DNA of 64,000 bases from Alphaproteobacteria bacterium (GTDB lineage: Bacteria > Pseudomonadota > Alphaproteobacteria > Bin95): positions 1 to 64,000 of the forward strand of contig OZ219785.1 in NCBI GenBank assembly GCA_964291285.2, in the 5' to 3' direction. The notes under the pieces were generated by a model. The model was not told the DNA's origin and searched no databases. It saw only the letters and a list, made by a program, of their open reading frames with translations. Shown one piece after another: positions 39,844-62,409 of the stretch (positions within the stretch are counted from its first letter, which is position 1; every line of letters starts with the position of its first letter). The position numbers were made by a program, and so were the translations under genes.

Positions 39844-40014
39844 TGCGGCATTCGTTCGGATCGGGCGGGATACATTGTGCCCATCCCGCGCATCGTATAG
39901 GCTTCGGCCTGGCCCTTTTCGGGAACGTCCTCTTGATTTGGATTCTGTGGGCACGAAGCGCGCGGTCCGGGTTGTATTCCCGCCAGGGCATGTGCGGTTA
40001 GCGGCGCCGGTCCC

Positions 40015-42354
40015 GTGGACAAGCACGACATCGCAGGAGAGCCCTTCGCAGCACGGTTTGCCAGGCGGGTGCTCGCGGCCCGCTGGCCGGTCATCCTCGC
40101 CACACTGGTCATCGTTGCCACCGCTTCCGGCGGCATTGCGCTGCTCGAATTCTCTGCGAATTACCGCATCTTTTTCGATGACGACAATCCACAACTTCTG
40201 GCCTTGGAGAAGCTGGAAAACACGTACGGGAAGAACGAAAATGTCGTGTTCCTGGTCGTTCCGGACAACGGTGACGCTACATCTGAAAAGGCTCTCTCGG
40301 CTGCTGTCTGGCTCACAAAGGCTGCATGGAACACGCCATATTCGCGGCGCGTAGATTCGCTTGCCAATTTTCAATACACGACCGCAGAGGGCGATGAGTT
40401 ATATGTGCGGGATCTTATCGATCCGCAGAAAATATCCGAAGCCGAAACGCGCTCGCAAATCCGCGACACCGCCTTGTCCGACCCGCGTATCGCAGGCAGC
40501 ATTCTGGCCCTGAACGGCGATGTCAGCGTTGTAAATGTCACCGTCGAACTGCCCGAGGACGGTCTTCTGGAGGCCGTGGCCGACGTCGCCGAATTCGCCA
40601 GGTCGGCGGCCGTGGAGGCTGAAGAACGGTTCCCCGGCATAGACCTGCGCATCGTCGGCACGGTCATGATCAACCAGACCTTCGTCGAAGCCTCGATCAG
40701 CAGCCAGATGATCTTCCTGCCCGCAAGCCTTCTGCTCATGGCCCTGGTCCTCGGTATCCTGACCCGGGGCTGGGCGGGGGTGGTGGCGACCGGACTGGTC
40801 ATCGTCTTCTCCATTCTGGCGTCTCTGGGGCTTGGCGCGTGGATCGGCCTGCCCTTCTCCCCGCCTATTTCGCCGGCGCCTACCATCGTGCTGATGATCG
40901 TCGTGGCGAACTGCGTGCATCTGCTTGTGGCCTTGCAGCAACGTCTGCGCGCCGGGGATTCCAGGCACGACGCCATTGTCGAATCCATCGCGCTCAACCT
41001 GCATCCGGTGTTCCTGGCAAGCCTGACGACGGCGCTCGGGTTCCTCAGCATGAACTTTTCCGAAGTGCCGCCCTACCGCCATCTCGGCAACTTCGTCGCC
41101 CTGGGCATCTTCACCTCCTTCATTCTCTCCGTCACATTCATGCCGGCAGTGCTTTCGCTTCTCCCCGTCCGCGCGCCCAGGGAACGCCGGCTCCGGGGAC
41201 CCGCAATGAGCCGCATCGCGGATTCCGTGCTGCGCCGCCGGAAGGCGATCTTCTGGGCATGGGTGGTGATCGTGCCCGCCATGGCTCTGGCCATTCCGCG
41301 CAACGAACTCAACGATGTTCTGGTTCATTTCTTCGACAGGAGCGTCGAGTTTCGCCAGGACACCGACTTCATGGACGAGCGTTTGAGCGGCAATACCGGG
41401 CTCGAATACTCGCTCGAAGCTACCGTCGAGGGCGGTGTCACCGCCCCCCTCTTCCTCGCCGAGGTTTCACAGTTCGCCAGTTGGCTCCGCGAGCAACCCT
41501 CCGTGCGCCACGTGGCGGTCATCACCGACACCTTCCGGCAACTCAACAAGAGCATGCACGGCGACGACCCGGCCGCCTACCGGCTTCCGGAAAGCAAGGA
41601 GCTGGCGGCGCAATACCTGCTGCTCTATGAGCTCTCGCTTCCTGAGGGGCTGAACCTGAACAACCAGATCGACAGATCCAGATCGGCCACGCGGGTGACG
41701 ATATCGGCAAAGACGCTCTACTCGCAGGACGTGCTTGACCTGAACGCGCGCGCCGAAGCCTGGCTGAAGGAAAACGCGCCCCATATAGCCAGCGTCAACA
41801 GCACCGGCCCCTCCGCCCTGTTCGCCTATATCGGGCAGCGCAACATCCGCGCCATGCTGGTCGGCACGCTGGTCGTGCTCCTGGCCATATCCGCGATTCT
41901 CCTCTTCGCCCTCAGGTCGCTCAGGCTCGGACTGATAAGCATCGTTCCCAATCTGGTTCCCGCTATACTGGGCTTCGGCGTCTGGGGTTTGACGGTCGGA
42001 CAGGTGGGCCTCTCCCTGTCGGTCGTGGTGGCCATGACCATAGGCATCGTCGTGGACGACACGGTGCATTTCCTCGCCAAATACCGCCGGGCGCGGCGCG
42101 AATACGGCCATGGCCCCGAAGAAGCGGTGCATTACGCCTTCGACACGGCTGGCCGGGCCCTGTTCACGACGACGGTCGTGCTGGTTGCCGGCTTCCTGTT
42201 ACTCCTGTTCTCTCCGTTCGTTCCCACCGCGCAGGTCGGCATCCTGACCGCAATGATTATCGGCTTCGCGCTCATCGCCGACCTGACGCTCCTGCCGGCG
42301 CTGCTGACGGCACTGGACCGGCGGCCGGGGGAACAGGGCGCGCGTTCGTCCTGA
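40015..42354 (+). CDS. MMPL/RND-family transporter
   Basis: Two repeats of periplasmic domain plus TM bundle; LTTALGF, GIVVDDTVHF. Confidence 0.9.
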   Translation: MDKHDIAGEPFAARFARRVLAARWPVILATLVIVATASGGIALLEFSANYRIFFDDDNPQLLALEKLENTYGKNENVVFLVVPDNGDATSEKALSAAVWLTKAAWNTPYSRRVDSLANFQYTTAEGDELYVRDLIDPQKISEAETRSQIRDTALSDPRIAGSILALNGDVSVVNVTVELPEDGLLEAVADVAEFARSAAVEAEERFPGIDLRIVGTVMINQTFVEASISSQMIFLPASLLLMALVLGILTRGWAGVVATGLVIVFSILASLGLGAWIGLPFSPPISPAPTIVLMIVVANCVHLLVALQQRLRAGDSRHDAIVESIALNLHPVFLASLTTALGFLSMNFSEVPPYRHLGNFVALGIFTSFILSVTFMPAVLSLLPVRAPRERRLRGPAMSRIADSVLRRRKAIFWAWVVIVPAMALAIPRNELNDVLVHFFDRSVEFRQDTDFMDERLSGNTGLEYSLEATVEGGVTAPLFLAEVSQFASWLREQPSVRHVAVITDTFRQLNKSMHGDDPAAYRLPESKELAAQYLLLYELSLPEGLNLNNQIDRSRSATRVTISAKTLYSQDVLDLNARAEAWLKENAPHIASVNSTGPSALFAYIGQRNIRAMLVGTLVVLLAISAILLFALRSLRLGLISIVPNLVPAILGFGVWGLTVGQVGLSLSVVVAMTIGIVVDDTVHFLAKYRRARREYGHGPEEAVHYAFDTAGRALFTTTVVLVAGFLLLLFSPFVPTAQVGILTAMIIGFALIADLTLLPALLTALDRRPGEQGARSS

Positions 42355-42441
42355 TTCGCTTCATGGCACCCGCCACCGGGAGCACTCAGCCGAATCTATA
42401 AGCGCAAAACCACCGGCGTTTTGAAACGGATATTCAAAATT

Positions 42442-42470
42442 TTGACTTTTCAAAAACCTTGTGTTATAGG
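42442..42470 (+). promoter_or_regulatory. Promoter TTGACT-N17-TATAGG for the RiPP precursor
   Basis: 17-bp spacing with extended TG in an AT-rich patch; AAGGAG RBS downstream. Confidence 0.55.
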
Positions 42471-42530
42471 TGTTTATCCAACATTGGGGTGGGTTGGTGT
42501 TGTTCGTCACGTGGAGCGAAGGAGATTGCC

Positions 42531-42782
42531 ATGAGAAGTGGCGATGAAATGCTTCAACAGATCGTTGAGAAGTCCGCCCTGGATACGGATTTCAGGCGGC
42601 AGCTTCTCGCGGATCCGAAGACTGCCATCAGCCAGGAATTGGGCATCACGATTCCCGATTCGATGACCATCAAGGTCCATGAGAGCGACATGCAGACGGT
42701 GCATCTCGCGCTGCCGCCGGACCCCAACATTACCGAGGAGCAGCTCGAAGCCATCTCGGCCGGCCTCTGCTGCTGCTGGTAA
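42531..42782 (+). CDS. NHLP (proteusin) RiPP precursor, core LCCCW (SrpE-like)
   Basis: DTDFRRQLLADPKTAI...HLALPP...ITEEQLEAISAG leader followed by LCCCW and stop. Confidence 0.93.
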   Translation: MRSGDEMLQQIVEKSALDTDFRRQLLADPKTAISQELGITIPDSMTIKVHESDMQTVHLALPPDPNITEEQLEAISAGLCCCW

Positions 42783-42827
42783 GCTTGAAGGCCGGCAACC
42801 GGCCGGCTGAAGAGAGAGCTTGAACCT

Positions 42828-42865
42828 TCCCCGTCCCCCGGTCCTCCAGCCGGGGGCGGGTTCTG
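42828..42865. terminator. Hairpin between the precursor and the convergent operon
   Basis: CCCG.CCCCCGG / CCGGGGGCGGG stem. Confidence 0.55.
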
Positions 42866-42884
42866 TCATGCCTGTTTGAATCCG

Positions 42885-44006
42885 TTATCGCGGGGATGCT
42901 GCCGCGGAAAGCACCATGAACACATAGGCCTTGGCCTGTTCAAGCCGATTTCCGGATATGACCAGCTTTATGTGGTGAATGCCGCGCAACAGCACATAAC
43001 GGCCCGATTTCGCAAAAAGCATTGTCGGCCTGGAAACCCAGTCGGCAAGCGCTGCAAGTTTCCCGGAAACTACAATGTCCTCCTGGCTCAGGGCCTTCAA
43101 AAACGGATCCCAGTCGGTCAGGCCGTCGAGCCAGTAGCGGGAGTCCTTCGTGTATCTCTGCTTGACAATGAGCGTAAGGCCGAGCGTCGGACCGAGACCG
43201 TCTTCGCGCACATCGACATTCACTCCTGTCCTGACAATATTCGCGCGTTCCCGGAAGCGGGCAATCACGGAGCCGACAGCGGAGACCTCGCCCGGCCAAC
43301 CGGTGATTTCAAGATAGGAACACAGGTCCTGCCGCGACTTGAAGCCCATGACCGCCAGGCGGATCGAACGGGAGCGGGACGGGAATACGCCGAATGAATC
43401 CATGCGCGTATCTTCGGGCTGCGCCAGGTACGCCCGTTCGACGGTCTTCCGCTCATTGTCCGTCATCTCCCAGCCAATGCTGGAAAGGAGCGCGTCAACC
43501 ACCATGGCGACGTCACCCGCCTGGCCTGAGGCGCCGACGATCGGGCGTTCGCCGGGCCGCAGGAACATCGCCGGAAGCGGCGTCTCGCCATCCCGCGCCG
43601 GGGCGATGTCATATTCCAGCATCAGCTTGCGGCCGACGATTTCGCGCAAGGGCGAGTCTTCCGCATCCATCTGTCCGAACAGTTGCATGACCGCTCTTGC
43701 GGTCCTGTCCGTCTCGTCGGTCCGTGCGCGCTCCAGGAAAAATGCCGCCGGGCCGGTTCCGCTCGCCAGGGAGACGCCGAAATCCGCCTTCGGCCTCGGT
43801 TCGTGGAGCGGCAGTTCGAAGCCGAACGGAAGGGCGCCCATCGTGACGGGAAGCTTCCGGGCGCATTCGAGTACGAGCTCCCATTCCGGACCTCCGACAA
43901 GCACCGGCGAAACCCTGTTTCGAAAATGCCCGAGCAGGTCGCCCATCGAGCCGCCCTCTTCGGCGAGACGGTCCTGGGTAAGCGTGACGGCTTCGTCGAT
44001 ATCCAT
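42885..44006 (-). CDS. Hypothetical RiPP-cluster protein (possible PT-barrel prenyltransferase-like)
   Basis: 373 aa, GGAGG RBS, directly after YcaO; FGFE, LEYD, HHIKL...AKAY motifs; fold unverified. Confidence 0.6.
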   Translation of the reverse strand: MDIDEAVTLTQDRLAEEGGSMGDLLGHFRNRVSPVLVGGPEWELVLECARKLPVTMGALPFGFELPLHEPRPKADFGVSLASGTGPAAFFLERARTDETDRTARAVMQLFGQMDAEDSPLREIVGRKLMLEYDIAPARDGETPLPAMFLRPGERPIVGASGQAGDVAMVVDALLSSIGWEMTDNERKTVERAYLAQPEDTRMDSFGVFPSRSRSIRLAVMGFKSRQDLCSYLEITGWPGEVSAVGSVIARFRERANIVRTGVNVDVREDGLGPTLGLTLIVKQRYTKDSRYWLDGLTDWDPFLKALSQEDIVVSGKLAALADWVSRPTMLFAKSGRYVLLRGIHHIKLVISGNRLEQAKAYVFMVLSAAASPR

Positions 44007-44015
44007 CTTGCCTCC

Positions 44016-46334
44016 TCACAAGATGACAGGGGCGGGATTCAGATCGGCTTCGGCCAGAGGATATGTGCGGCGGCCCATTCCGACAGGCGCGTCATACAGG
44101 CGCCCCGGCGCGAACCTTGCCCAGAAATGGCGCATGCCCGGCACGACGACCCGCACAACGGGCATGCCGATATCGGGCCGGGTCTGATCCAGCACCAGGA
44201 ATTCCATGCCGCTCGCTTCGACGAGCGCACGGCAATGCTCGACATCTTCGCGCGTGTCCGCCGCTTCGACCGCCGGATACTGCGAAGCCTTGCGGAGCGG
44301 CTCGTCCGCCGCCGGCGCCAGCCAGGAGCACTCGGCGAGTCGAGCGGTCCTCCACCACCGGAGCGCCAGCGGATCGTCGATCATGGGCCGGCCGTCGCTC
44401 CTCCCCGGACGCGGCAGCCAGGTAAGGCACTGGTTCAATTCGCAAATCGCGCGCAAGGCCGCCACGCGCGGGTCGGCATGGGCGCCGGCGCTGTAGATGA
44501 TGTCCTCCGTCGGGGCGTCCGGCCTGCGCGAGAGCGCAACGAAGGCGGGAATGCCGAGATCGGAAGTCACGTCGAGCATCCACAGCTCGCGCTCATAGCC
44601 GGCGTAGCGGCCCGCGGCCGATGCGAGATAGTCGTCGTCGAAGCTGGAAAGATCGACCGCCGGCACCCGCAGACGGTTGTACCACCAGATGGCGAAGGCG
44701 TCCCGCTCCGCCAGTTCGTAGAAGCCCTGCAGGATCGCCTCTTCCAGGGTGTTGCCGGCGGCGCAGCCGTTGGAGTCGGCGATCGGGTCCACCGGGCCGC
44801 GCAGTTCGGGCGGCATGCTGTAGAGCATCGATGTCGGCAGATAGCGGTGGCGCTGCTGCGTCAGCGACCACACCGGAGTCCAGTCGATTTCGGCTTCGGG
44901 GTCGAGGCGCGGCGGCACGATATTGTAGGGATGTCCTTTCGCGTTAATGCTTCCCGCGTTGTCCAGTTGACTGTCGCTGAACAGCTGCACCGCGTTCGGA
45001 TGGACTGCCTCGTCTTCCATGGCGAAGTCGATGAAGCGCCTGCGGCGGCGGATCTCATCTCCGGCCCAGGCGCCCGAATGGCGTTCGATCGCTTCGCAGA
45101 GGGCGCTGACCTCGGACTGCTCTCTTGTGCTGCCCTTGCCGGCGCTCTTGCTGCGCAGGCTGCGCCTGAGCGAACTCAGGCTCCGGCTTCTCATGCCGTG
45201 GTTGCTGCCGGCCCAATAGACATGCAGCCAGGGGTCGGTCTCATCGGTCGTGCGCTTGAGCCAGGTCACGACGCCGCTCACCGGGCTGACAAGGTGGCGG
45301 TATTTCGCCAGGGTCGCTTCCGGCGCTGCACTGCGCGCGCCGCCGCTGTTGCGATGGGTTTTGGGACTTGCCTTCAGAGACAGCGGAACCGGTGGCCGAT
45401 CCGGGCGATGCAACGCTTCCTCACCGCAGGCAAGGCATTGCGGCCGGCGCATGACCCGGTGCTGCGAGCTTGCGAATGTGCCGGTATTCATCGCGACTGC
45501 GTGGTCGTGAATCGGGGCCGCCTCGTCCAGAACCAGCCATTTGACGATCTCGGCCGCGATCAGCCCGTACAGCCCTTCCAGAACTGCGGGCTCGGCCGCG
45601 AACGGCTTGAACGCAGCCTCTTCGCCCGCAAAGTTGCGCAGGAAACTGTGGACCTCCTTGTGGCCGCGCAGGCGCTGCGCCAGACAGGCCCAGCAGGGTC
45701 CCTGCCTGTCCGCGCGAAAGACGGGGCCGAACAGCGCCTCCATGCCTCGAGGCCGCAGCAGCGTCCACGCCGCTCCCGCCTCGAGCCGGCGTCGATTCAC
45801 GTCTTCAAGGCGCGCTTCGAGATAGTCGTCGCAGACGATGACGGTGAGTTCGGGCCCGTCAGCCCCGACACCGGCGCCGGCCTCTTCCAGACGCCGGATC
45901 AGCCGGCCGTCGTCTCCTTCCACCGCGATGCGCGACGCCGCCAGCCGTTGCTCCGCCCAGCGGGGCGAGGCGCCGAGCGACGACCAGTAGGCCGCCCGGT
46001 ATCGGTCCATGCCATGATCGCCGGAGACGACATAACCCCTGGCGGAAAGCGAGCCGACCGCCGCGACAATATCGGCGGCGGTGTGGACGCCCTCAAGGGC
46101 GGCGGCGATCTCGTCCTGCGGGCGCCGGCCGTCGAGCAGCGGCAGCAGATCGCAATAAAGCCTGCCGTGCAACAGGGTATTGAACGACTCGGAAACCAGA
46201 AGCGCCTGTTGTTCGCCGATTTCGTGGAACTGCAGGTGCGGGGCAAGCGCGGGAAGCCTGACGGCGCCCCGGTCCGCAGGAGTCGTTCTGGTCAATATCC
46301 CCTGCCGGGGATTCCTGCCTGTCTGCGCTGGCAT
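44016..46334 (-). CDS. Fused RRE / E1-like / YcaO cyclodehydratase (TOMM, SrpC-like)
   Basis: GPCWACL, RRPQCLAC, SAGKG, CEAIER, SNGCAAGNTLEEAILQGFYELAERD, Pro-rich C-terminus NPAPVIL. Confidence 0.95.
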   Translation of the reverse strand: MPAQTGRNPRQGILTRTTPADRGAVRLPALAPHLQFHEIGEQQALLVSESFNTLLHGRLYCDLLPLLDGRRPQDEIAAALEGVHTAADIVAAVGSLSARGYVVSGDHGMDRYRAAYWSSLGASPRWAEQRLAASRIAVEGDDGRLIRRLEEAGAGVGADGPELTVIVCDDYLEARLEDVNRRRLEAGAAWTLLRPRGMEALFGPVFRADRQGPCWACLAQRLRGHKEVHSFLRNFAGEEAAFKPFAAEPAVLEGLYGLIAAEIVKWLVLDEAAPIHDHAVAMNTGTFASSQHRVMRRPQCLACGEEALHRPDRPPVPLSLKASPKTHRNSGGARSAAPEATLAKYRHLVSPVSGVVTWLKRTTDETDPWLHVYWAGSNHGMRSRSLSSLRRSLRSKSAGKGSTREQSEVSALCEAIERHSGAWAGDEIRRRRRFIDFAMEDEAVHPNAVQLFSDSQLDNAGSINAKGHPYNIVPPRLDPEAEIDWTPVWSLTQQRHRYLPTSMLYSMPPELRGPVDPIADSNGCAAGNTLEEAILQGFYELAERDAFAIWWYNRLRVPAVDLSSFDDDYLASAAGRYAGYERELWMLDVTSDLGIPAFVALSRRPDAPTEDIIYSAGAHADPRVAALRAICELNQCLTWLPRPGRSDGRPMIDDPLALRWWRTARLAECSWLAPAADEPLRKASQYPAVEAADTREDVEHCRALVEASGMEFLVLDQTRPDIGMPVVRVVVPGMRHFWARFAPGRLYDAPVGMGRRTYPLAEADLNPAPVIL

Positions 46335-46366
46335 CCAGGATTTCCGCTCCCGACCGGTCGGCGCCT

Positions 46367-48763
46367 TCATGCACCCGAATGGAGCGTATCGATCCCGGCG
46401 GCAGCGCGGGAGGCGGTTTCGGCCGCCGCCGCGGCCAGCGTATCGAAATCCTCGTGCCCGCAAGCACCGGCAACGAGGGACCTGACCTTCTGCCCCGCCG
46501 CGGCTGCGTCAAATCCGTCCTCGCCGACAAGGCATGTGATGCCCTGCAAATCCCGCCACATGGCCGCGGCCTGCGCCAGCGGCTCGGCGCCGGCGGCATC
46601 GAGCACCGCTGCAGCACTCGGGGCCGGATCGTCGAGGCTTGGTGCGGCCTGCGTCAGCTGCAGGACCCGCGCGGCCCTCTCGACGTCCTCCAGCCCGCCG
46701 CGCATCCGGGCATATGCGGACAGGCCCGTTTCGTCGGGACGCCCCACCGGCTCGCGCAATCCGGCGATCAGAGATTCGTTCGAGCCGCATTCGGCCAGCA
46801 GCCGGCGCTGCGCCTCGGCGAAGCGGCGGCCGATTTCGGCATCGCCGCACTCGAAGATGCAGCGCGCCCTGGTGAGGACGGGAATTTCGCCGACGGCAGG
46901 ACTCCCGTAGCGCTCCGCCAGATCGGAAAGCGGCAGCGCATGAAGGGAGTCGAAGCCGGGCGGAATCGGCGAGAACAACAGGCTGTCCTTCGCCAGCTCG
47001 GTCACGGCCTTCCGGAAACCCCGGCACAGACGTTCGTTTTCTCCGAACTTCCAGCTGTCATTGACAAACAGCATGTCGACCGCAACGCCGGGATAAACGT
47101 CCCGGCTGGCGAGATCGCCCAGAAAAACGGCAGCGACGCCGCCCGCGCGCAACGGTCCGGACCGGTCGACAAAATCCGCGACCACGGCTGCAAGCACGGT
47201 TGAAATCGACGCTTCGGCAAGATTGGACAGCGCCGTTCTCGCCTCGCTTGGAGACAGATTCCCGCGCACGACATGCATGCCGATCTGGAACGCCTTGTCG
47301 TTCGACCAGTTCCGCACGATCTCCGCCGACTCCCCTGCATCGGCCGCCGGCAATTCGGCGATCAGCTCCTTCATTTCCTGGACGCCCATTTCGCGCGTCC
47401 AGTAGAGCCTCGTGAGCCCGCGCCGCGCGACCGCCTCATATCGCTCGTCGGGCCCGAACCCTTTCGGCAGGTCGAGATCGGTGAACTCCCGGTCCTGCAG
47501 GTTGTCGAGGAGCTCCGAATGGCGTTCGATCCATGCGGCGAGCCGCGGGGCGGCGCCGAAGATTTCGACTATCGCATCGAAGGCGTCCGGCCGCGCCGCG
47601 GAAACCGCGCTGTCATAGGCGCTCCAGTCATCGATATCGGGATAGAAATGCCTGCGCCATTCATCCACCAGCGGGTCCATCTTGGCAAACCAGCGCTTCG
47701 GCCGCAGCACCATGTTCATCATGTCGCCATAGGTTCCCGGCAATTCCGGCGATTCATCAGAACCGCGAACCTGCAACAGCGGATAGTGCCGCGCGGCCAT
47801 GGCGTGATGATCCGCGTGGCGCTGCATGTTGAAGAACATCCAGTTGCTGAACTTCCAGTCGGCGCTCCAGGAGTGGCGCGGCATCGCCTTTTCCCAACGG
47901 CCGTTCGGCAGCCGGACCCGGCGCAGACCGTAGTGCTGGAAGTAGTTGCTGATCTTCATGGAGAAGACGCAACACAGGCCGAGAAAGGCGAAAACCGGCA
48001 CTGCCCAGATTCCGCCCATCCAGAACACGATTCCATACCAGAACCCGACAGTTATGCCATAGCGCCAGAACGGGTTGCTGTAATGCCAAATGGAAAGTTG
48101 GCGTCGGGCCAGCCGTTCGCCCACAACTTTCCAGGAATTGGCGAGGTTGCTCACAACTTCCTTCGGGAAATACTTCCAGAAACTTTCGCCCTTCGGCGCG
48201 GACCCCACATCATGCGGCGTGCCCACCATGGCATGGTGTACATATACATGCTCCGTCGCATATTGCGGGTAGGACGCCGAGGAAAGCAGAAATTCTCCAA
48301 GCCGGCGTTCCCAGACAGCGCGCCGGTGAACAAGTTCGTGTCCGACCACAAATACCGCTTGTGCCTCCATGGTCAAAATGATCGCCAGCAACACGCATTC
48401 CCAGATTGCCAATTGATCTGCGACAAGGATTTGCCACATGCCGAAAATGAGAACCGGCGGCCAGAGAACCGCCCAGATCCAGACCGGGAGATTATGCCAT
48501 AGCAGATGGCGTTCCGATGTTTTTGACGGATCCATACTGCGTCCGTCGCGACCCAGAGCCCGATCGAGCGGTCCTGCAACGCTCATGAAAAGAAATGCGG
48601 GCAACAACCACCAGCCGCCATAGACCGCAGCCAAAATAATCAACGGGAAAATACCCAATGGCAGGTAATGCGGAAGGGCGTTGAGGATCGACGGTTCGAT
48701 CTGTCGCGCCAAGGCGGCCCCGCCGGGGCCCGAGCTCACATCTGCGGAGGCATCCTGCGGCAT
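46367..48763 (-). CDS. AlkB-type membrane diiron monooxygenase fused to a GlnE-like nucleotidyltransferase-fold domain
   Basis: HELVH, EHVYVHH, NYFQHYG, QRHADHH, PELPGTY; C-terminal LSNLAEA..., LGDLASRDVYPGVAVDMLFV, RGGLEDVE. Confidence 0.8.
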   Translation of the reverse strand: MPQDASADVSSGPGGAALARQIEPSILNALPHYLPLGIFPLIILAAVYGGWWLLPAFLFMSVAGPLDRALGRDGRSMDPSKTSERHLLWHNLPVWIWAVLWPPVLIFGMWQILVADQLAIWECVLLAIILTMEAQAVFVVGHELVHRRAVWERRLGEFLLSSASYPQYATEHVYVHHAMVGTPHDVGSAPKGESFWKYFPKEVVSNLANSWKVVGERLARRQLSIWHYSNPFWRYGITVGFWYGIVFWMGGIWAVPVFAFLGLCCVFSMKISNYFQHYGLRRVRLPNGRWEKAMPRHSWSADWKFSNWMFFNMQRHADHHAMAARHYPLLQVRGSDESPELPGTYGDMMNMVLRPKRWFAKMDPLVDEWRRHFYPDIDDWSAYDSAVSAARPDAFDAIVEIFGAAPRLAAWIERHSELLDNLQDREFTDLDLPKGFGPDERYEAVARRGLTRLYWTREMGVQEMKELIAELPAADAGESAEIVRNWSNDKAFQIGMHVVRGNLSPSEARTALSNLAEASISTVLAAVVADFVDRSGPLRAGGVAAVFLGDLASRDVYPGVAVDMLFVNDSWKFGENERLCRGFRKAVTELAKDSLLFSPIPPGFDSLHALPLSDLAERYGSPAVGEIPVLTRARCIFECGDAEIGRRFAEAQRRLLAECGSNESLIAGLREPVGRPDETGLSAYARMRGGLEDVERAARVLQLTQAAPSLDDPAPSAAAVLDAAGAEPLAQAAAMWRDLQGITCLVGEDGFDAAAAGQKVRSLVAGACGHEDFDTLAAAAAETASRAAAGIDTLHSGA

Positions 48764-48839
48764 GGCGGCTTCCCTAGCGAACCAAGGCTCCCTTGCATAC
48801 CGGTTTATATACCATCGGGCAGGACAAACCGCAAATGCC

Positions 48840-50141
48840 TCAGGCGTTCAAGACCTTGAGGAGGCATTCCAGAGCCTCGATGCAAAACGCAGAGGTCACG
48901 GCTTCGGAGCCGTGTCCTATCTGCCCTACGGTCCCCCACTTCAGCGACTGGTCTCCGAACGCCAGGAGTTCCTGCCAGCTACCGTCATCCCGTTGCGAAT
49001 TTGCGAATCTTTCCAACTGGCGTTTTCCGTCGATACGTTCAAGGCTTCCAATATTGTAAAGCGCCGACACTGCCTGCGCCGCCTGAAGAATATTGACAAA
49101 CTCTCCTTTATCGTCGCGCAAACCCAGAATGCGTTCAGCAAGAATCGGGCGTAATTTGTTGAGGGCAGGCCGCGTGCGAGCCACCGCACGCGCGGTTGCA
49201 TAGTAGATCGCCACTTCGTCGGGATACCATTTGGACGAATCCTCGACCCGGCCTTCGGTAATCAATGTTTCCAGCCATCGTTGAGCGTCCCTTGTTTCAG
49301 GGCGGTCACCCAGATAGGCAATGACATTCGCATTGACGACAGGATCGGCTTCGAGGCGGAAACGCGACACAACGTCAGGTTCGTCGCCGGCCAGAACCCA
49401 AGTCATGAAACGACCGTGCTCGTCTCGGTTTTCCAATATCCCGGGCACGTTTCTTTCCAGAAGAATCCAGGGATGATCTTCGATGACAAGCGAACAGAGT
49501 GTCGTGCTGTCCAGATCCTGGGGCAGATGGCGGTAGTAGCGCCACAATCCGGGATATTCGATGGTGTCGCCGATATAGGCCTTGGCGGCATTGTACAGGG
49601 CCCTGGCCCGCGCATCGCCGCAACGCGCCAGGGCAAGCGCGTAGAAAGCCGAAACGAAGGGAGGTCTCTCGAAATGCCGCGGAATATCCGGGTTGGCCGT
49701 GTTGAACCGGATGCAGTGCCAGGCCCCGTTTTCGTCGATAGCGGATTCCAGGAAGGCGAGACCGCGGCGGATGCTTTCTCTGCCCGCGGCGGCCAGCGCC
49801 TCGGGGCCGGCGGCGCCTGTTCCGGCCCGCGCCCCTTCGGGCAGGGGGGGACGGCGCGGCGGCGCGGGGTCGTGAAGCGTCCTGCGAAGAAAAGCGAGCG
49901 AAGTCGCGCCGGTTCTCGCTTCCTCCCGCTCGGCCGCGGTGAATTTGCCGCGCGGCGGCAGGACGAGATGCGTCGCCGCGTAGGTTTCCTCATGCACATG
50001 AATTTCATGGCCCTCGGCCGGCGTCACGCCGAGTTCTTCTTCGATGGTCTTTCTGGGGTCAGCGAGAAGGCGGGCGCGCAAACCGTGGTCGTCGCCGGCC
50101 CGCGACATGAGGTGTTCCACCGCGTCAACGGGCTTCTTCAT
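48840..50141 (-). CDS. NHLP-leader domain fused to a monodomain class II terpene cyclase / prenyltransferase-like alpha-barrel
   Basis: N-terminus collinear with the precursor leader (LRARLLADPRKTIEEELG...HLVLPP); PQDLDST, DPVVNANVIAYLG, QW motif SQRDDGSW. Confidence 0.75.
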   Translation of the reverse strand: MKKPVDAVEHLMSRAGDDHGLRARLLADPRKTIEEELGVTPAEGHEIHVHEETYAATHLVLPPRGKFTAAEREEARTGATSLAFLRRTLHDPAPPRRPPLPEGARAGTGAAGPEALAAAGRESIRRGLAFLESAIDENGAWHCIRFNTANPDIPRHFERPPFVSAFYALALARCGDARARALYNAAKAYIGDTIEYPGLWRYYRHLPQDLDSTTLCSLVIEDHPWILLERNVPGILENRDEHGRFMTWVLAGDEPDVVSRFRLEADPVVNANVIAYLGDRPETRDAQRWLETLITEGRVEDSSKWYPDEVAIYYATARAVARTRPALNKLRPILAERILGLRDDKGEFVNILQAAQAVSALYNIGSLERIDGKRQLERFANSQRDDGSWQELLAFGDQSLKWGTVGQIGHGSEAVTSAFCIEALECLLKVLNA

Positions 50142-50181
50142 CGATGCATTCCATGCTTGCCGACCCTGCAATCTTCCCCTG

Positions 50182-52134
50182 TCAGGCGATTTGCCGCCTG
50201 ACCAGCTCCCTGAATACCCCGTCGACCTCCATGAGCTCGTTGAAGGAGCCGCTTTGCACGATCTTCCCGGCCTGCAGCACATAGATGCGGTCGGCCTGCT
50301 CCAGGGTCGATAGGCGGTGGGCGATGACAATCCGGGTGGAGGTAAGCGCGGTGAGGTTTTGCATCACCCGGGCCTGGCTTTCGTTGTCCAGCCAGTTGGT
50401 GGCCTCGTCGAACAGCATTACCCGCGGGCTGCCGATAACCGAACGGGCGATCGTGATGCGCTGCCCCTCGCCGCCTGACAGGACGGTCCCGCTGGTGCCA
50501 ACCATGGTCATCATGCCCATGGGCATGCCCCTGATCTGGTCCTCCACTTCGGCGACCCGGACCGCTGACCACACTTCGTCGTTCGTCACGTCCTCGCGAT
50601 GGCTGACCAGGTTGTCCCAGAGGTCATGGGGGTGGAGGCCGACCGATTGCGGCACGGCGCCGATTTTCCGGCGCAGTTGCTTCAGGTTCAGATGCCTGAG
50701 ATCGCGTCCGTCGTAATACACCGCACCGGCGGTCGGCCTGTCGACTCCAAGGGCAAGCCGGAACAGGGTGCTCTTGCCCGAGCCGGACTCGCCGGCAATC
50801 GCGATGAAATCGCCGGCACGGGCATGGATCGTGACATCGTCGAGAACCAGCGGGCCGTCCGGGTCGTAGCGGAAGGAAATGCGATCGAACAGGACGTCGC
50901 CGCCCAGATATTCGACCGGCTCCCCTTCCACCTCCGTATCGGGAATTGCGGCCAGCAGGGGGCGCATCTGATCGAACGCCGGGAGCATGGCGGCCATGGC
51001 GCTGAAAGACTCCCCGAGCCGGCCGACCGCGGACTGGAAGGCGATGAAGACGGTGTAAACGACGAGAAAATCGCCGATCGGAAGGGTCCGGTCACCCACC
51101 GTGGCCACAGCGAAGAGCAATACCCCGCCGGCAAGAAAGGGGAGCGCGGCGCCGAACGCCCGCGAATGCGCCTCAAGCGCATCCAGCTCGATCTCCGCGC
51201 GTTTCTGCACGCGATAGTCCCGCGCCCAGATAGCGAAGGCCGACCCTTCCGCGTTTTCCACGCGCAGCTTGGCGATACCGCCCACGATCTGGAACAGCCG
51301 CCCGGATACGCGACGCGCTGCGTCGATCATCCGCCCGTAAGGCGAGACCTGGCGCAACCCAAGGACTGTCGCGACCAGCAGCGAAGCCAGGCTGAAGACG
51401 AGGGCGATGATGCCGAGTGCGGCATCGTAGAAGAAGATGACAGCAAAGACCGGCAGCAGAAAAACGATCGACAACAGGCTGTCGGCCACGACTCCCTGTA
51501 CGCCGTCCCGGAGATTCTGGAACGTCATGCCCGACATGGCCAGATCGCCGGCCGGACGGCGGTGCAGCACGCCTGGCGGGAGGCGCATGAGGCGGTCCCA
51601 GAAAGCAGCTTCGACCCGCGACGCCGAGCGTCCCTCAAGGCGCATCATTGCCGAGCTTTGAAGCAGGTGCAGCAACGCGCCGAGCAAGCCGAACCCCGCG
51701 ACCGCCAGGGCCACGATGTAGAGCACTGCGGCGCTTCCGCCCGCCGCTATGTGATTCGCGGCGAAACCGAGCGCAATTGCCGGCAGCAGCTTGATCAGGC
51801 CGCCCGGAAGCCCGGCAGCCACCAGCCGCGCCAGATCCCCGGCCGATCCATGCAGGGCGATTTTCAGCAGGTCTGCCGGTTTCACGTTCCCCGACGGCAA
51901 CGGCCGGTAGAACATCCAGGCTTCCTCGGCCAGCGCGCCGGCGCGCTCCGCCGTCATCCGGACACTGCGCTTGCTGACCGGGTCCACTTCCCGGTAGCGC
52001 CCGAACATTCCCGGCAGCAGCGCTACGGGCTGGCCGTCCTCGGCGCGGAAGCCCAGCATCGCGTTGCTGTCGCCCCGCCACCAGTCTCCCTCGCCCTTGA
52101 ACCGCACGCGCCGGGCGCGCACACCCGACGCATC
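50182..52134 (-). pseudogene. NHLM bacteriocin-system ABC transporter (permease + ATPase), 5'-truncated
   Basis: DASGVRARRV, WDRLMRLP, GESGSGKST, LSGGEGQR, FDEAT; no start or RBS, and similarity is lost upstream of about 52135. Confidence 0.8.
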
Positions 52135-52322
52135 CTTGATGCAAAGAGCGAGGCCCGGCCGGCCTGCATCGGTCGGCAGTTTTCCGTTGCGTGACAGACG
52201 GTTGGGCCTGACCCGGCCTCTGACCGCGGTTTCGCGCGCGGGTCGCGTTGTCCGTTCAAGAGCGCCGTTCCGTTCCCCCGGGACGGACGGCGCCCGAGGG
52301 AACAGACAACGGAGACACGCCC

Positions 52323-53459
52323 ATGCGCATCCATGCCCCCGTCAACGAGCGGACGGTCCGCCGCACCTTCAGGGAGAAGAAACCCGGACGATACGGCCTG
52401 ACCGTCATCGACAGGGACCTGCCCGCCTTCGGCTTCACCGTCGCCGGGAACGGAACGAAGACCTTCTTCGTCCGGACCTCACGCCAGTTCGGCGCGCCCA
52501 GGGCGATCCTCGGCACGACCGACGACATGACCGCCGCCGAGGCGAGGGAGAAGGCCATTGCCGCCATCGCCGAAGCCAAAGCCGACCGCGAGACCGGGCC
52601 GCTGTTCGCCGACTTCGCGGCCGACTTCATGCGCCGCCAGGGGCGGCGCTGGAAACCCTCCACGAGGAAGGCCAACGCCCATCTGGTCGAGCGCGGCCTC
52701 GTGCCCTTCTTCGGCGCGATGCCCGTCGCGAAGATCGACCGCGCCGATGTGCGGCGCTGGTTCGATTCCCTCAGCGGCGCCCCCGGCAGCGCCAACCGGA
52801 CCCTGCCGGTGCTCTCGGTGATGATGCGGCAGGCGGAGCTATGGGACCTTCGCCCGCAGGGCTCCAACCCCTGCCGCAACATGCGGCGCTACAGGACGGC
52901 GCCGCGCGAGCGGTTCCTGTCCCTGGACGAGTTGAAGCGCCTCGGCTTCGTCCTCGACCATGCCGAGGACCGGCAGGCCGCCGCCGCCATCCGCCTGCTG
53001 CTGTTCACCGGCGCCCGGTCGTCCGAGATCGCCAGCCTGCAATGGGACTGGATACGGGACACCCGCGCGGTGTTGCCGGACTCCAAGACCGGACCGAAGG
53101 CGCTCCAGCTTCCCCCGCCCGCGCGGGCCGTCCTGAATGGCCTGCCGCGCGAGGGACGCTTCGTCTTCCCGAACGGGAAGGGCGACGGCCCGATGACCGA
53201 CCTCGGCCTGCGCTGGCAGAAGCTGCGCGGTCTCGCCGGGCTGGACGATGTGCGCATCCACGACTGCCGGCATACCTTCGCCTCCCATGCCGTGATGAGC
53301 GGCCTCGACCTCTACACCGTCGGCCGCCTGCTCGGCCATGCCGATACCGCCTCCACCGAACGCTACGCCCATCTCGCCGACGAGCATGTCCGCGAGGCGG
53401 CCGGGCGCATCTCCGGCATCGTCCACGGCGCCATGACCGGGAAGGAAAGCGGGCGATGA
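52323..53459 (+). CDS. Tyrosine recombinase/integrase 1
   Basis: Arm-like N-terminus; TGARSSE, DSKTG, IHDCRH, LLGH, ERYAH. Confidence 0.92.
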   Translation: MRIHAPVNERTVRRTFREKKPGRYGLTVIDRDLPAFGFTVAGNGTKTFFVRTSRQFGAPRAILGTTDDMTAAEAREKAIAAIAEAKADRETGPLFADFAADFMRRQGRRWKPSTRKANAHLVERGLVPFFGAMPVAKIDRADVRRWFDSLSGAPGSANRTLPVLSVMMRQAELWDLRPQGSNPCRNMRRYRTAPRERFLSLDELKRLGFVLDHAEDRQAAAAIRLLLFTGARSSEIASLQWDWIRDTRAVLPDSKTGPKALQLPPPARAVLNGLPREGRFVFPNGKGDGPMTDLGLRWQKLRGLAGLDDVRIHDCRHTFASHAVMSGLDLYTVGRLLGHADTASTERYAHLADEHVREAAGRISGIVHGAMTGKESGR

Positions 53460-54805
53460 GCGGCGGCAGGCATCGTGTCCGGCTCACCGTGAAGGCCGTC
53501 GCCGCCGCCAAGCCGGCGGAACGGGAATACACCCTGTGGGACAATCTGCTGGCGCATTTCGGGGTCAGGGTGCAGCCCTCCGGCGTCCGGTCCTGGATCG
53601 TCCAGACCCGCGTCCGGGGACGCATGCGCAAGATCACCCTCGGGCGCTTCCCCGAACTGCCTCTCGACGCGGCGCGCCGGGAAGGCGCAGCCGTGCTCGC
53701 CCGCCTGTGGGGCGGCGAGGACGTGACGCCGCCGCGCAAGGAGAAGGCGCCGCTGTTCCGGGACTTCGCCGCCCGTTACCGCTCGCGGCGGAAACACCGC
53801 TGGAAGCCGTCCTCGCTCAAGACCTTCGATAGCTACATGAAGAACCGCCTGATGCCGCATTTCGGCAGGCTCCGGCTCGACGCCATCGACCATGCGCGGG
53901 TCTCGGCATGGTTCGACGCCGCCAGCGCGGACAGGCCCGGCGCCGCCAACCGCGCCTTCGAGATACTCCGCGCCATGCTCGGGACGGCCCGGCAGTGGGG
54001 CGACATCGGCGAGCATGTCCCCGATGCCTGCGCCAACATCGTGAAGAACCCCCGCAAGCCTGTCGCGCGTTACCTCAGCCGCGAAGAGCTGGAGCGTCTC
54101 GGCGCGGTGCTCGACCGCCACCGGAAGGAACACCCCTGGCCGGTGGCGGCCATCCGGCTGCTGACGCTCACCGGGGCGCGGCTCTCCGAAGTCATCAACC
54201 TCAGGTGGGACGAGATCGGAGAGTTGACCGGAGACGGCGCGAGCGCGCGCATCGAAGACTCCAAGACCGGGCCGCGCACCATCTGGCTCGGACCCGAAGC
54301 GGCAAGGCTGGTCGAGGCGCTGCCGCGACCGGATGGCCGGGAGCGGGTGTTCCCCGAGACCCTCACACCGGCAAGGCTCTACACCTTCTGGTGCGGTATC
54401 CGCGACGAGGCGGGGCTTCCGGGCCTTCGCATCCACGACTGCCGCCACACCTGGGCCTCGCAGGGCGTCATGAACGGCGTCGGGCTCACCACCGTCGGAC
54501 GGCTGCTCGGACACCGCAAGCGGGAGACCACCGCGATCTACGCCCATCTCGACGATGGCGCGCTGCGGGTCGCCGCCGCCCAGGCCGCCGCCGTCATCGC
54601 GCGAGCGATGGGGTACAGGGCGGAGGCGCCTCCGCTGCCGGACGAGGCGGCGCACGGCGATGCATCGGCCGACATACCTGTGCCGTCCAGGCCCGGTGCG
54701 TCGGCATCACCGGAGGGAGGGCGATCCTCCCTCCGGGTCAGGACCGGGGATCCGGAGCGATCGGATGCAAGCATCCGCCGTAGACCGCAGGGTATCGGGA
54801 TCTGA
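53456..54805 (+). CDS. Tyrosine recombinase/integrase 2
   Basis: ATGA overlap with integrase 1; arm domain; TGARLSE, DSKTG, IHDCRH, LLGH, IYAH. Confidence 0.92.
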   Translation: MSGGRHRVRLTVKAVAAAKPAEREYTLWDNLLAHFGVRVQPSGVRSWIVQTRVRGRMRKITLGRFPELPLDAARREGAAVLARLWGGEDVTPPRKEKAPLFRDFAARYRSRRKHRWKPSSLKTFDSYMKNRLMPHFGRLRLDAIDHARVSAWFDAASADRPGAANRAFEILRAMLGTARQWGDIGEHVPDACANIVKNPRKPVARYLSREELERLGAVLDRHRKEHPWPVAAIRLLTLTGARLSEVINLRWDEIGELTGDGASARIEDSKTGPRTIWLGPEAARLVEALPRPDGRERVFPETLTPARLYTFWCGIRDEAGLPGLRIHDCRHTWASQGVMNGVGLTTVGRLLGHRKRETTAIYAHLDDGALRVAAAQAAAVIARAMGYRAEAPPLPDEAAHGDASADIPVPSRPGASASPEGGRSSLRVRTGDPERSDASIRRRPQGIGI

Positions 54806-54959
54806 GTTTGCGGCGGGCATGGAGCCGATCGGGGACCCTCAGGCGGGGTCTTTGCCGTGAAAATGGTTGGGGATCGGGCACACAAAAACCCCTCCCCGCC
54901 AAAGCACTGCTTCCGAGGCGTCCGATACTCGCCATCTGCGGCGCCCGTCTTGCGGATCG

Positions 54960-55704
54960 TGAATCGAAGCCGCTGGACCGCATCGGCGAGGCCGCCATCC
55001 GGCGCTGGTTCGAGCGATACAGCCGCACCGCGCCGGGCAACGCCAATCCCTGCCTTGCCCGTCTGCGGCAGATACTCAACTTCGCCCTCGCCTGCGGCCA
55101 CATCGAGGTCAATCCCGTCGGGCGCATCGCCCCGAACCGCCGCACGGCGCTCACGCGGTTCCTGTCCCGGGAGGAACTCGCACGCCTCCATGCCGCCCTG
55201 GACGCGCAGACCCGGAAGAGCGCGCGGCAGCAGGCCGACATCGTCCGCCTCCTGCTGCTGACCGGCTGCCGCAGAAGCGAGATCACGGGCCTGCGATGGT
55301 CCGAGGTCCGCGACGACGGGTTGGCGCTCACCGATGCCAAGACGAGGCCGAGGACGGTCCCGCTCGGCAGCCGGGCCCGGGCCATTCTCGACCGGCAGCC
55401 GCGCGCGGGCAGCCCGTTCGTGTTTCCCTCGCCGTGCGACCCCGCCCGCCCGCGCAGCCCGGACCTGCCGCTCTGGTACCGCGTCAGACGCGAAGCCGGC
55501 ATCGGGGATGTCCGCCTTCATGATCTCCGGCATACCATGGCGAGCCATGCCGTCATGAACGGCGTGCCCGTCCCGGTGGTCTCCCGCCTGCTCGGGCATT
55601 CCAATGTGAGGATGACGCTGCGCTATGCCCATCTCGCCGACCGCGAGATCGAGGCCGCCGCGGAACGCGTCGGGCAGGCCATGAGCGCCGTGCTGGAGGC
55701 TTGA
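54960..55704 (+). CDS. Tyrosine recombinase 3, lacking the N-terminal arm domain (possibly truncated; start uncertain)
   Basis: TGCRRSE, DAKT, LHDLRH, LLGH, LRYAH; similarity to integrases 1 and 2 begins at about KPLDRI. Confidence 0.75.
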
Positions 55705-61494: not shown

Positions 61495-62409
61495 ATTTAC
61501 ACGCTCGAGACCGTCGGACAGTCCGCAACCGCGACCGTCTGCGAACACGCCGCCCTCTACGGCGCCACCCCCGAGCGCGACGAACTCGACCCCCGCGAGG
61601 TCTGGGATGAGGACGATGCGCTGACCGCAATCGGCGAGGCCTTCCGCATCCTCGCCGAAGGCGCCTGCCCCGACGGCACCCAGCTCGCCGACGAACGCGA
61701 GAGCCTGCTGTGGGGCTTCGTCAACATGCTCCACGCCCAGAGCCGCCGCCTCGACCGCAGCGTCGACCGGCTCAGCCCGGACCTGCGCGACCTCCAGCGC
61801 GAGCAGGACGGCTCCGAGATCAAGTCCCGCGACCTGGAGCTCGTCACCGACCGCGCGCAGAACCTCGGAGACCGGCGCGACGCCTTCGAGAAGATGCGCA
61901 ACACCGCCGCGCACGCCTACCGCGAAGAGACCGGCGACATGTGGCGGCCCCGGCACGGCAGCCACGCCAGCCAAACCGGCACGCTCACCAGCGCCGCCAT
62001 CGACGCCCGCGACTTCGTCCGTGCCCGCAAGGACCGCGCGACCATGGCGCACCTGCCGCAGGGCACCCTCGTCGCCATCGCCGGCGGCAAGGACGTCGCC
62101 GCCCCGGCCGCGGTGATCGCCAGGCTCGACCAGGCCCGCGCCAAGTATGCCGACCTCGTGCTCGTGCATGGCGGCGGCCCCGGCGTCGAGAAGATCGCCG
62201 CAAGCTGGGCCGAGCGCAACGGCGTCCACCAGGTCGTCTGCAAGCCCGACTGGGACCGCCACGGTCGCGCCGCACCCTTCCGCCGCAACGACGAACTGCT
62301 CAACCTCCTGCCCAGGGGCGTCATCGCCTTCCCCGGCTCCGGCATCACCGAGAACCTCGTCGACAAGGCCCGCAGCCTCGGCATCCCGGTCATGCGCTGC
62401 CCCGCCTGA
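61495..62409 (+). CDS. DUF2493 / YspA-SLOG domain protein (plasmid/ICE type); no canonical start
   Basis: LLWGFVNM, WRPRHGS, TSAAIDARDF, LVHGG, AAPFRRND, FPGSGITENL; frame open back to a TGA at 61477. Confidence 0.75.
   Translation: MYTLETVGQSATATVCEHAALYGATPERDELDPREVWDEDDALTAIGEAFRILAEGACPDGTQLADERESLLWGFVNMLHAQSRRLDRSVDRLSPDLRDLQREQDGSEIKSRDLELVTDRAQNLGDRRDAFEKMRNTAAHAYREETGDMWRPRHGSHASQTGTLTSAAIDARDFVRARKDRATMAHLPQGTLVAIAGGKDVAAPAAVIARLDQARAKYADLVLVHGGGPGVEKIAASWAERNGVHQVVCKPDWDRHGRAAPFRRNDELLNLLPRGVIAFPGSGITENLVDKARSLGIPVMRCPA

Follow-up and report, generated by a model that had tools for sequence, protein, structure and literature searches.

The first 64,000 nucleotides of contig OZ219785.1 (assembly GCA_964291285.2, Alphaproteobacteria bacterium, lineage Bin95), the whole of which is here called the window, carry a gene that encodes, in one protein of 433 amino acids (aa), a domain resembling the leader of NHLP-type peptide precursors and a barrel of the class II terpene cyclase type. 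The two parts are a conserved fusion and not two genes in the cluster type to which the gene belongs, and the surrounding cluster is, judged from its sequences, the published srp cluster of sponge symbionts. Putting together the sequence comparisons, the predicted structures and the analogy with a published system, we think it probable, with modest confidence, that this gene supplies the srp proteusin pathway with its terpene cyclase, and that in this pathway a neighbouring prenyltransferase would prenylate the ribosomal peptide and the cyclase would then ring-close the attached isoprenoid. This suggests that the srp product carries a ring-closed lipid tail.

An earlier note on this DNA, made from its letters alone, had read the gene as an NHLP domain fused to a class II terpene cyclase-like barrel, with a Pro-rich linker and the motifs DLDST, DPVVNANV and QW. 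Every named motif is present in the translation, and TIGR03793, BLASTP, the cyclase profile and the fold matches agree on the fusion. The ATG at 50141 lies 40 nt behind the stop codon of the upstream ABC gene and the first methionine is common to the relatives, whereas an alternative, longer open reading frame (ORF) started by TTG (to 50330) runs into that ABC gene. The AlphaFold2 model of the whole protein has a mean predicted local distance difference test score (pLDDT) of 84.8 and a predicted template modelling score (pTM) of 0.80. The Pro-rich stretch spans residues 91-103; D91, P92, A93, P94, P95 and R97 are invariant or nearly so, and the pLDDT is 88 at residues 91-100 and 65 at residues 101-110. 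Mean pairwise identity among 77 fused sequences is 0.70 in the nucleus of the leader-like domain, 0.73 in its tail (residues 64-99), 0.35 in the linker (residues 100-118) and 0.78 in the cyclase, which argues that the domain is under strong constraint and flexibly tethered. From these sequences it does not look like a substrate for leader-reading enzymes.

The architecture is widespread, the fusion being kept at about 70-75% identity in many phyla. A word-based protein search returned 1056 proteins at E <=0.001 among 7999 candidates scored, and the 120 matches listed are 422-466 aa long, 71-99% identical to the query and cover 97-100% of it. We further used the best 80 of 179 stretches encoding relatives, taken as one genome per species and 68-89% identical, which by record title come from Nitrospirales, Binatia, Alpha- and Gammaproteobacteria, Acidobacteriota, Gemmatimonadota, Latescibacterota, Nitrospinota and others. 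The earlier note had allowed that homologues might always be two separate genes; instead, a full-length fused frame occurs in 76 of these 80 genome loci, and at least one of the remainder (L058) is cut by a contig end. The same architecture in so many loci means that the fusion is not due to chance. Unfused barrel homologues, considered as a refutation of the fusion, were rejected as such because they belong to other cluster types. Members of the family in public records (P0053, P0031, P0080, P0096) are named 'nitrile hydratase subunit alpha', which is wrong, or 'hypothetical protein', and their cyclase part is unannotated.

Residues from about 119 to 433 are, by sequence and predicted fold, a single-domain class II terpene cyclase. 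The kinship with squalene-hopene and MstE-type cyclases proposed in the earlier note falls short in Pfam, where SQHop_cyclase_C remains below threshold with 16.5 bits against a gathering cut-off of 26.1, and it is borne out by the clade's own profile. Built from 70 fused and unfused relatives and run against PDB sequences, this profile reaches drimenol synthase (E 6.7e-29), squalene-hopene cyclase (7e-24), AstC (5.5e-20), the 'prenylcyclase' 6ij1 (3e-14) and MstE (1.5e-4). In the fold search with Foldseek, drimenol synthase leads (4e-11), followed by 8pak/8paj, 6ij1, MstE (2e-8), drimenyl-diphosphate synthase and squalene-hopene cyclase; among the matches listed, the best 34 are all class II cyclases (E 4e-11 to 2.5e-4), and the transaldolase AprG and a polysaccharide hydrolase come after them with E >=3e-4. 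A LanC-like barrel and the beta-subunit of protein prenyltransferases were rejected as identities, as neither is among the Foldseek matches. Fusions to a UbiA prenyltransferase, a weak Trp-DMAT match, P450s and sulfotransferases occur among other homologues of the cyclase.

The DXDD-type motif is kept throughout the fused family, with D209, L210, D211 and S212 in all 77 fused sequences and T213 in 70 of them, and D211 aligns with the general-acid Asp of drimenol synthase in the HMMER alignment. According to the available passages of PMC12232559, the middle Asp of the 'occasionally variable DXDD motif' is the general acid, and drimenol synthase has DXDT. The unfused relatives show DLDDT, DMDDT, DLDST, DLDSL or DTDCT at this place. 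The earlier note had taken the replacement of the last Asp by Ser for a weaker acid that might suit an epoxide, an idea that does not hold, because the middle Asp is the acid, drimenol synthase acts on an alkene with its DXDT and the unfused relatives vary here. An epoxide substrate was rejected for the same reasons, the motif variant not being diagnostic, and the Ser of DLDST would be a tolerated variant. Across the 70 fused and unfused relatives, N272 is invariant, D266, V268, V269, N270 and A271 are at least 90% conserved, and so are Q383, G387 and W389. Drimenol synthase binds phosphate with four residues; in a mapping made by hand, which is no more than a lead, two of them correspond to the invariant R262 and K304 here and a third to the invariant E264. 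An anion site may survive, and either a diphosphate or a C-terminal Trp with its free carboxylate could occupy it.

The N-terminal domain is recognisable as a leader relative by several routes. In BLASTP, the first 78 residues of the enzyme and the first 78 of the cluster's precursor align one to one with no gap (E 6e-14), and 25 of the 78 columns are identical. TIGR03793, the NHLP leader model, matches residues 8-65 with E 2.2e-8, although its score of 33.8 bits lies under the curated cut-off of 50.9, which the precursor itself exceeds with 69.9 bits; the NHLP assignment of the earlier note is thus upheld by the E-value and not by the cut-off. Among PDB sequences, residues 1-100 also match the alpha chains of nitrile hydratases (E 3e-5) and, with E 1.5e-4, the solved NHLP leader 8TB1; AlphaFold2 predicts three helices, two strands and one further helix. 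A search of the ESM Atlas with residues 1-105 gave no usable match.

Where a leader would be read by its enzymes, the likeness ends. The earlier note had described the first ~78 residues as collinear with the leader up to and including a pseudo-cleavage box. The collinearity is confirmed, both sequences ending in G78, and the box keeps its place and its final G78; the tail is otherwise identical at just 3 of 17 positions, and at 2-3 of 17 against either kind of leader (SrpE or Trp-core). Where the precursor has hydrophobic residues in its I-x4-L / I-x-A-G pattern, the enzyme has R72 and A75. In place of L(X)4L it has [F/L/Y]67-x4-R72, all 77 sequences sharing R72, and T77-G78 stands in place of a Gly-Gly-type cleavage site, followed by an enzyme and not by a short core. 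E71, R72, A75, G78 and S81 are each present in all 77 fused sequences. The most conserved parts of the region are the hairpin 45-63, the tail and the DPAPPxRPP segment, and conservation is lowest in helix alpha-1 (residues 7-17). The available passages of PMC10858898 state that the brominase SrpI requires just the L(X)4L region and that C39 peptidases read the same region, and a proteusin YcaO requires L(X)4L together with helix alpha-1 (PMC12455567). The earlier suggestion that the domain docks in the manner of a leader on the RiPP recognition element (RRE) of the YcaO enzyme or on the peptidase-exporter (RiPP: a peptide made by the ribosome and modified after translation) finds no support in this form, given the replaced L(X)4L and the poorly conserved helix alpha-1. 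By these comparisons the domain is a leader-derived module that has kept the folded NHLP nucleus; the tail by which the halogenase, the C39 peptidase and the RRE of the YcaO enzyme recognise a leader would have been lost.

A second cluster type, in which the cyclase is not fused, occurs in sponge metagenomes. Metagenomes were scanned with 16 aligned unfused barrels, and the 80 loci kept were rescanned with five hidden Markov models (HMMs) of our own: 17 of these loci are of the srp type, with NHLP domain and cyclase in one frame, six (L094, L103, L107, L112, L113, L126) are of the second type, and about 54, many of them very short, show the cyclase alone among the five models. The second type has a 345-aa homologue of the cluster's prenyltransferase (30% identical, E 8e-34), whose stop codon overlaps the gene of an unfused 320-aa cyclase (41% identical, E 9e-69, motif DNDDT) in translational coupling. 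Four of the six loci encode, behind the pair, two or three NHLP precursors that have a GG site and short cores containing Trp (such as YGMMWG, FGMMWG and GDIWSEARPG), and L094 additionally has NHLP-type ABC exporters. These sister clusters have the logic of the published prenyltransferase-cyclase system, without heterocycles or bromine, and their sequences show that the cyclase clade would work with Trp-bearing NHLP precursors. In every case seen, fused cyclases stand with SrpE-type precursors (76 genome and 17 metagenome loci) and unfused ones with their own Trp-core NHLP precursors (6 loci). At one further locus of the metagenome scan, L151:302-1624, an NHLP-like ORF without a GG motif, ending in ...DTRWI, stops 10 nt before an unfused cyclase, a gene order that could yield a fusion through loss of the stop codon.

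The nucleus of the fused domain (residues 8-63) shares 26-29 of 56 residues with the Trp-core leaders and 20 of 55 with SrpE, and SrpE shares 22-25 of 55 with the Trp-core leaders; in BLASTP, the enzyme and the sister-cluster leaders are 56% identical over residues 11-62 (E 2e-17). A maximum-likelihood tree of leader nuclei shows the three groups as a star, with distances of about 1.25 between fused domains and Trp-core leaders and 2.5 between fused domains and SrpE; being unrooted and of three groups, its topology cannot name sisters or show a clade.

The 373-aa protein encoded two genes away from the cyclase (PRENYLTRANSFERASE) would be, by its predicted fold, the likely maker of the cyclase's substrate. 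It has no sequence match in Pfam, NCBIfam or the PDB and was named by fold search alone. Its AlphaFold2 model, from an alignment of 40 orthologues, has a pLDDT of 88.5, a pTM of 0.89 and five alpha-alpha-beta-beta repeats, and Foldseek matched it to aromatic ABBA prenyltransferases only (EpzP, NphB, CloQ, 6-DMATS, 5-dimethylallyl-Trp synthase, PriB, IptA and PatF; E 5e-6 to 4e-4). A role as peptide prenyltransferase is indicated at the level of the fold only, and the protein co-occurs with the cyclase in 63 of the 80 genome loci. Prenyltransferase and cyclase are separate genes here. Of 19 long homologues of the cyclase, two (P0204, P0256) are matched in their N-terminal halves by an HMM of the 373-aa protein and have the cyclase as their C-terminal halves, so that by their sequences they are prenyltransferase-cyclase fusions.

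The identity of the cluster follows from the core LCCCW, the NITEEQL motif of the precursor and the YcaO match. The published SrpE has the same core and the motif -NLTEEQL-, its YcaO enzyme SrpC forms three thiazolines, and the brominase SrpI acts on its C-terminal Trp, as the available passages of PMC10858898 describe; LCCCW is the core in 64 of the 65 precursors from the genome loci. The name srp stands for the 'sponge-derived RiPP proteusin' cluster of Nguyen et al. 2021, according to passages of PMC10858898, PMC9426513 and PMC12615548, and the cluster is reported there to be among the most widely shared biosynthetic clusters of sponge microbiomes. In the available parts of these three papers, SrpE, SrpC and SrpI are treated and a cyclase or prenyltransferase is not mentioned, and a link of SrpE or SrpI to either enzyme was not found in the literature searched, a search to which the original srp paper and its supplements did not belong.

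We propose that the neighbouring ABBA prenyltransferase would attach a linear isoprenoid to the peptide, most likely to its C-terminal Trp, after which D211 of the cyclase would protonate the terminal C=C of the isoprenoid and the cyclase would close one or more rings, giving a cyclised terpenoid tail on the peptide. The product would exit via the NHLP-type ABC exporter, the MMPL transporter or both. Trp is the likeliest acceptor because of the analogy with the published system and because the Cys residues of the core are consumed. After class II cyclisation a diphosphate is no longer allylic. Prenylation would therefore come first, since a cyclised, drimenyl-type diphosphate would be a poor donor for an ABBA enzyme. 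Several points weigh against this proposal. The closest solved relatives of the barrel work on free farnesyl diphosphate (FPP) and not on a peptide, and R262 and K304 suggest that a diphosphate substrate would fit as well. No isoprenyl diphosphate synthase is among the conserved neighbours in the 80 genome loci. Which residue accepts the prenyl group, how long the chain is and in what order the steps run are inferences, and the exporter gene is cut at window position 52133, so that the pathway may not be intact in this genome. Only identities and branch lengths place the fused domain closer to the Trp-core leaders than to SrpE, and in the tree a divergent fused sequence grouped with the SrpE side.

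The same observations leave room for a cyclase whose substrate is an isoprenoid in free form, as diphosphate or as another lipid, and which produces a separate cyclic terpenoid that is exported by the MMPL protein or joined to the peptide afterwards. The best solved relatives, which are drimenyl-diphosphate or drimenol synthases on FPP, would suit such a role, as would the hand-mapped pair R262 and K304 and the presence of an HpnN-like MMPL protein in 25 and a LolA-like protein in 15 of the 80 loci. We nevertheless regard it as improbable, because a cyclised diphosphate, being no longer allylic, would hardly be usable by the ABBA transferase, the published peptide system prenylates first and cyclises second, a conserved leader-like domain would have no evident need, and R370 of drimenol synthase is the invariant E264 here. 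That the barrel is not catalytic at all, and that the leader-like domain anchors it in the maturation complex as a binding or scaffold module, for instance for immunity or a lipid tail, seems the least probable of these explanations: the motif departs from DXDD and the architecture suggests docking, but all 77 sequences have the general-acid Asp with its neighbours, fused and unfused relatives alike retain the QW-type and DPVVNANV blocks, enzymes with DXDT are active, and relatives are fused to prenyltransferases and P450s, like biosynthetic enzymes.

The domain could also be a true leader, in which case the peptidase-ABC exporter would cut the whole protein after T77-G78 and carry it out of the cytoplasm to its place of work. 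G78 stands in 77 of 77 sequences at the position of the precursor's cleavage Gly, and NHLP-type exporters are present in the cluster. We consider this very unlikely, since the positions that C39 peptidases and other leader readers use are lost (an invariant R72 for Leu, A75 for Ile, and a tail with 3 of 17 residues identical to SrpE), a folded barrel of 350 aa would be an unusual cargo, and both the isoprenoid donors and the leader-bearing peptide would be expected in the cytoplasm.

Returning to the proposed cyclisation of a peptide-bound isoprenoid, we suppose that the NHLP-like domain would be a built-in docking or priming module. It might fill in cis a leader-binding site inherited from an ancestor with its own NHLP precursors, or it might tether the cyclase to the prenyltransferase or to the precursor. 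We rank the filling of the site in cis highest, then a tether to the prenyltransferase, pairing with the SrpE leader, docking on the YcaO enzyme or the exporter and, last, a secretion leader. Filling in cis, by which the cyclase would be freed from the leader of its substrate, fits the pattern of precursors beside fused and unfused cyclases, a pattern that is a correlation only; a tether would have its analogy in the lineages where prenyltransferase and cyclase are fused. Complex prediction of the domain (residues 1-100) with YcaO (residues 1-360), the prenyltransferase and SrpE gave scores of 0.29 and 0.22 against a mark of 0.32, in runs without controls, and these scores weigh neither for nor against binding. 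Our more specific speculation, which we put forward tentatively and do not expect to hold in full, is that the domain is the captured leader of an ancestral substrate working in cis, which would make the cyclase a natural leader-primed RiPP enzyme acting on the foreign SrpE, whose own leader serves the YcaO enzyme and the halogenase; the product would then be a brominated tri-thiazoline pentapeptide with a polycyclic isoprenoid.

The closest functional precedent is NctPC, in which an ABBA prenyltransferase is fused to an MstE-like cyclase and which puts a geranylgeranyl group on a Trp in a ribosomal peptide and cyclises that group afterwards, as reported in the available passages of the 2026 review PMC13290415, citing Hubrich et al. 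2024. As far as those passages go, the NctPC/ChrPC maturases and the srp cluster share an ABBA-type prenyltransferase, an MstE-like monodomain class II cyclase, a precursor of the NHLP/proteusin type and a core Trp; they differ in that srp has the two enzymes as separate genes, with an NHLP-like domain on the cyclase in the place of the prenyltransferase, and in that the srp peptide is also heterocyclised and brominated. With the srp cluster, as described in the published passages, the present one shares the core LCCCW, NxTEEQL, the YcaO enzyme SrpC, a candidate SrpI (here on another contig) and an occurrence in many phyla of sponge symbionts. The enzymes AsDMS, AstC and MstE have the same single beta-domain class II fold and a general-acid Asp in a variant motif (DXDT there, DLDS here), but they are only about 18% identical in the fold alignments, lack a leader-like domain, are fused to a HAD phosphatase or stand alone, and use FPP or a prenylated benzoate as substrate. 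Compared with NHLP leaders (TIGR03793; MprE7, 8TB1), the fused domain has by sequence the same nucleus of helical bundle plus hairpin, whereas it scores under the cut-off, lacks L(X)4L, the double-Gly context and a core, and is followed by an enzyme of 315 aa. In engineered fusions, a lanthipeptide synthetase and a cyanobactin heterocyclase joined to their own leaders act on leaderless cores. These fusions likewise carry a leader in cis on a RiPP enzyme, but they are man-made, whereas the srp domain is natural and its priming in cis putative.

The srp cluster, NHLP leaders, monodomain class II cyclases and the maturation of ribosomal peptides by prenyltransferase and cyclase are already known. 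A leader-like domain fused to a cyclase, or an NHLP domain fused to any enzyme, was not found in the literature searched, nor was the contrast between fused and unfused cluster types; the original srp and NctPC papers and their supplements, outside this search, may hold a prior naming. The conserved prenyltransferase and cyclase predict a lipid-like, ring-closed terpenoid part of the srp product, a prediction that alters the mass and polarity to be sought in sponge extracts as well as the enzymes to be added in a reconstitution. A leader-like domain on the enzyme would be a natural counterpart of the engineered fusions that free RiPP enzymes from leaders, and the occurrence of fused and unfused cluster types offers a direct route to testing its role on the cyclase.

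Table 1. Features of the fused gene and its cluster (window positions), and number of the 80 genome loci with the corresponding ORF cluster (lower bounds, as many loci are short)
Feature	Position	Strand	Basis or remark	Loci of 80
Fused cyclase gene	48840..50141	-	433 aa (P0001), ATG at 50141	66
NHLP/nitrile-hydratase-alpha-like domain, residues 1-90	49872..50141	-	structured nucleus 8-63 and conserved own-kind tail 64-90	
Pro-rich segment DPAPPxRPP, then variable linker, residues 91-118	49788..49871	-	conservation, pLDDT	
Predicted class II terpene cyclase beta-domain (alpha/alpha barrel), residues 119-433	48843..49787	-	profile and fold matches	
DLDST, residues 209-213	49503..49517	-	variant of DXDD general-acid motif	
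DPVVNANV, residues 266-273	49323..49346	-	most conserved block of the whole cyclase clade	
QW-type motif Q383-x3-G387-x-W389	48975..48995	-	read from translation	
Precursor SrpE, 83 aa, ...NITEEQLEAISAG-LCCCW	42531..42782	+	TIGR03793 69.9 bits, core LCCCW	
373-aa ABBA-fold aromatic prenyltransferase	42885..44006	-	AlphaFold2 and Foldseek	63
YcaO cyclodehydratase, N-terminal winged helix-turn-helix (wHTH)/leader-binding domains (SrpC-like)	44016..46463	-	PF02624 E 2e-94, TIGR03604, TIGR03882	61
Desaturase/AlkB-type membrane domain and GlnE-like nucleotidyltransferase fusion, 798 aa	46367..48763	-	PF00487 E 3.5e-26; PF03710 E 4e-5	57
NHLP-type export ABC subunit (ABC2), without ~340 N-terminal residues	50182..52122	-	TIGR03797 E 1e-192	58
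MMPL/HpnN-like RND transporter, upstream of precursor	40015..42354	+	PF03176 E 2e-35; TIGR03480 E 7e-37	25
Peptidase-ABC1				53
Trp halogenase				45
183-aa protein				33
LolA-like protein				15

The gene order ABC2, cyclase, desaturase/GlnE fusion, YcaO, prenyltransferase is kept in most of the 80 loci. The frame of the desaturase/GlnE fusion overlaps the YcaO frame by 97 nt, and the true YcaO start is probably near 46334; the fusion could oxidise the isoprenoid or the azolines. An HpnN-like MMPL transporter and a LolA-like protein travel with the cluster (window 40015-42354, plus strand; L004:2741-3862), and such a pair would be suited to carrying a lipid-like product as far as the outer membrane. 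The G+C content is 0.59-0.65 over the cluster (window 40000-52000) against about 0.70 on both sides, and cluster proteins are 70-80% identical across phyla; both fit a horizontal spread of the cluster as a unit.

In the assembly of this genome the cluster is split. Homology to the nearest relative, L004 (92.6% over 12.2 kb), ends at window position 52133 inside ABC2, which has 646 aa here, 988 aa in L004 and 980-988 aa in relatives, and three tandem tyrosine recombinase genes lie beyond the break at 52248-55704. The missing N-terminus of ABC2 (~340 aa, 93% identical), ABC1 (95%) and the Trp halogenase, which is outside the window, have their homologues on contig C3 of the same assembly (369267-376716), the halogenase (94%) lying ~3 kb from that other exporter half. 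What follows the break on C3 matches window 62150-63204 (~1 kb) in reverse orientation with 99.7% identity, so that, by sequence, a repeat is at or near both break points. Short-read contigs from two runs end 10-24 nt past 52133 without a mismatch, supporting the junction, whereas a contig from a third run of the same study leaves the window exactly at 52133 and continues for 4320 unlike letters. The word depth is 10- to 30-fold higher beyond ~52000. The junction abuts a high-copy element, and the split may be real, polymorphic or an effect of assembly.

The cyclase fusion is present in a single copy in the genome. Elsewhere in the same genome, an NHLP-like frame with two in-frame TGA codons lies at C1:277553-284723 beside homologues of ABC1 and ABC2 (63% and 54% identical), and another ABC1/ABC2 pair (83% and 74%) is found at C4:448856-452055.

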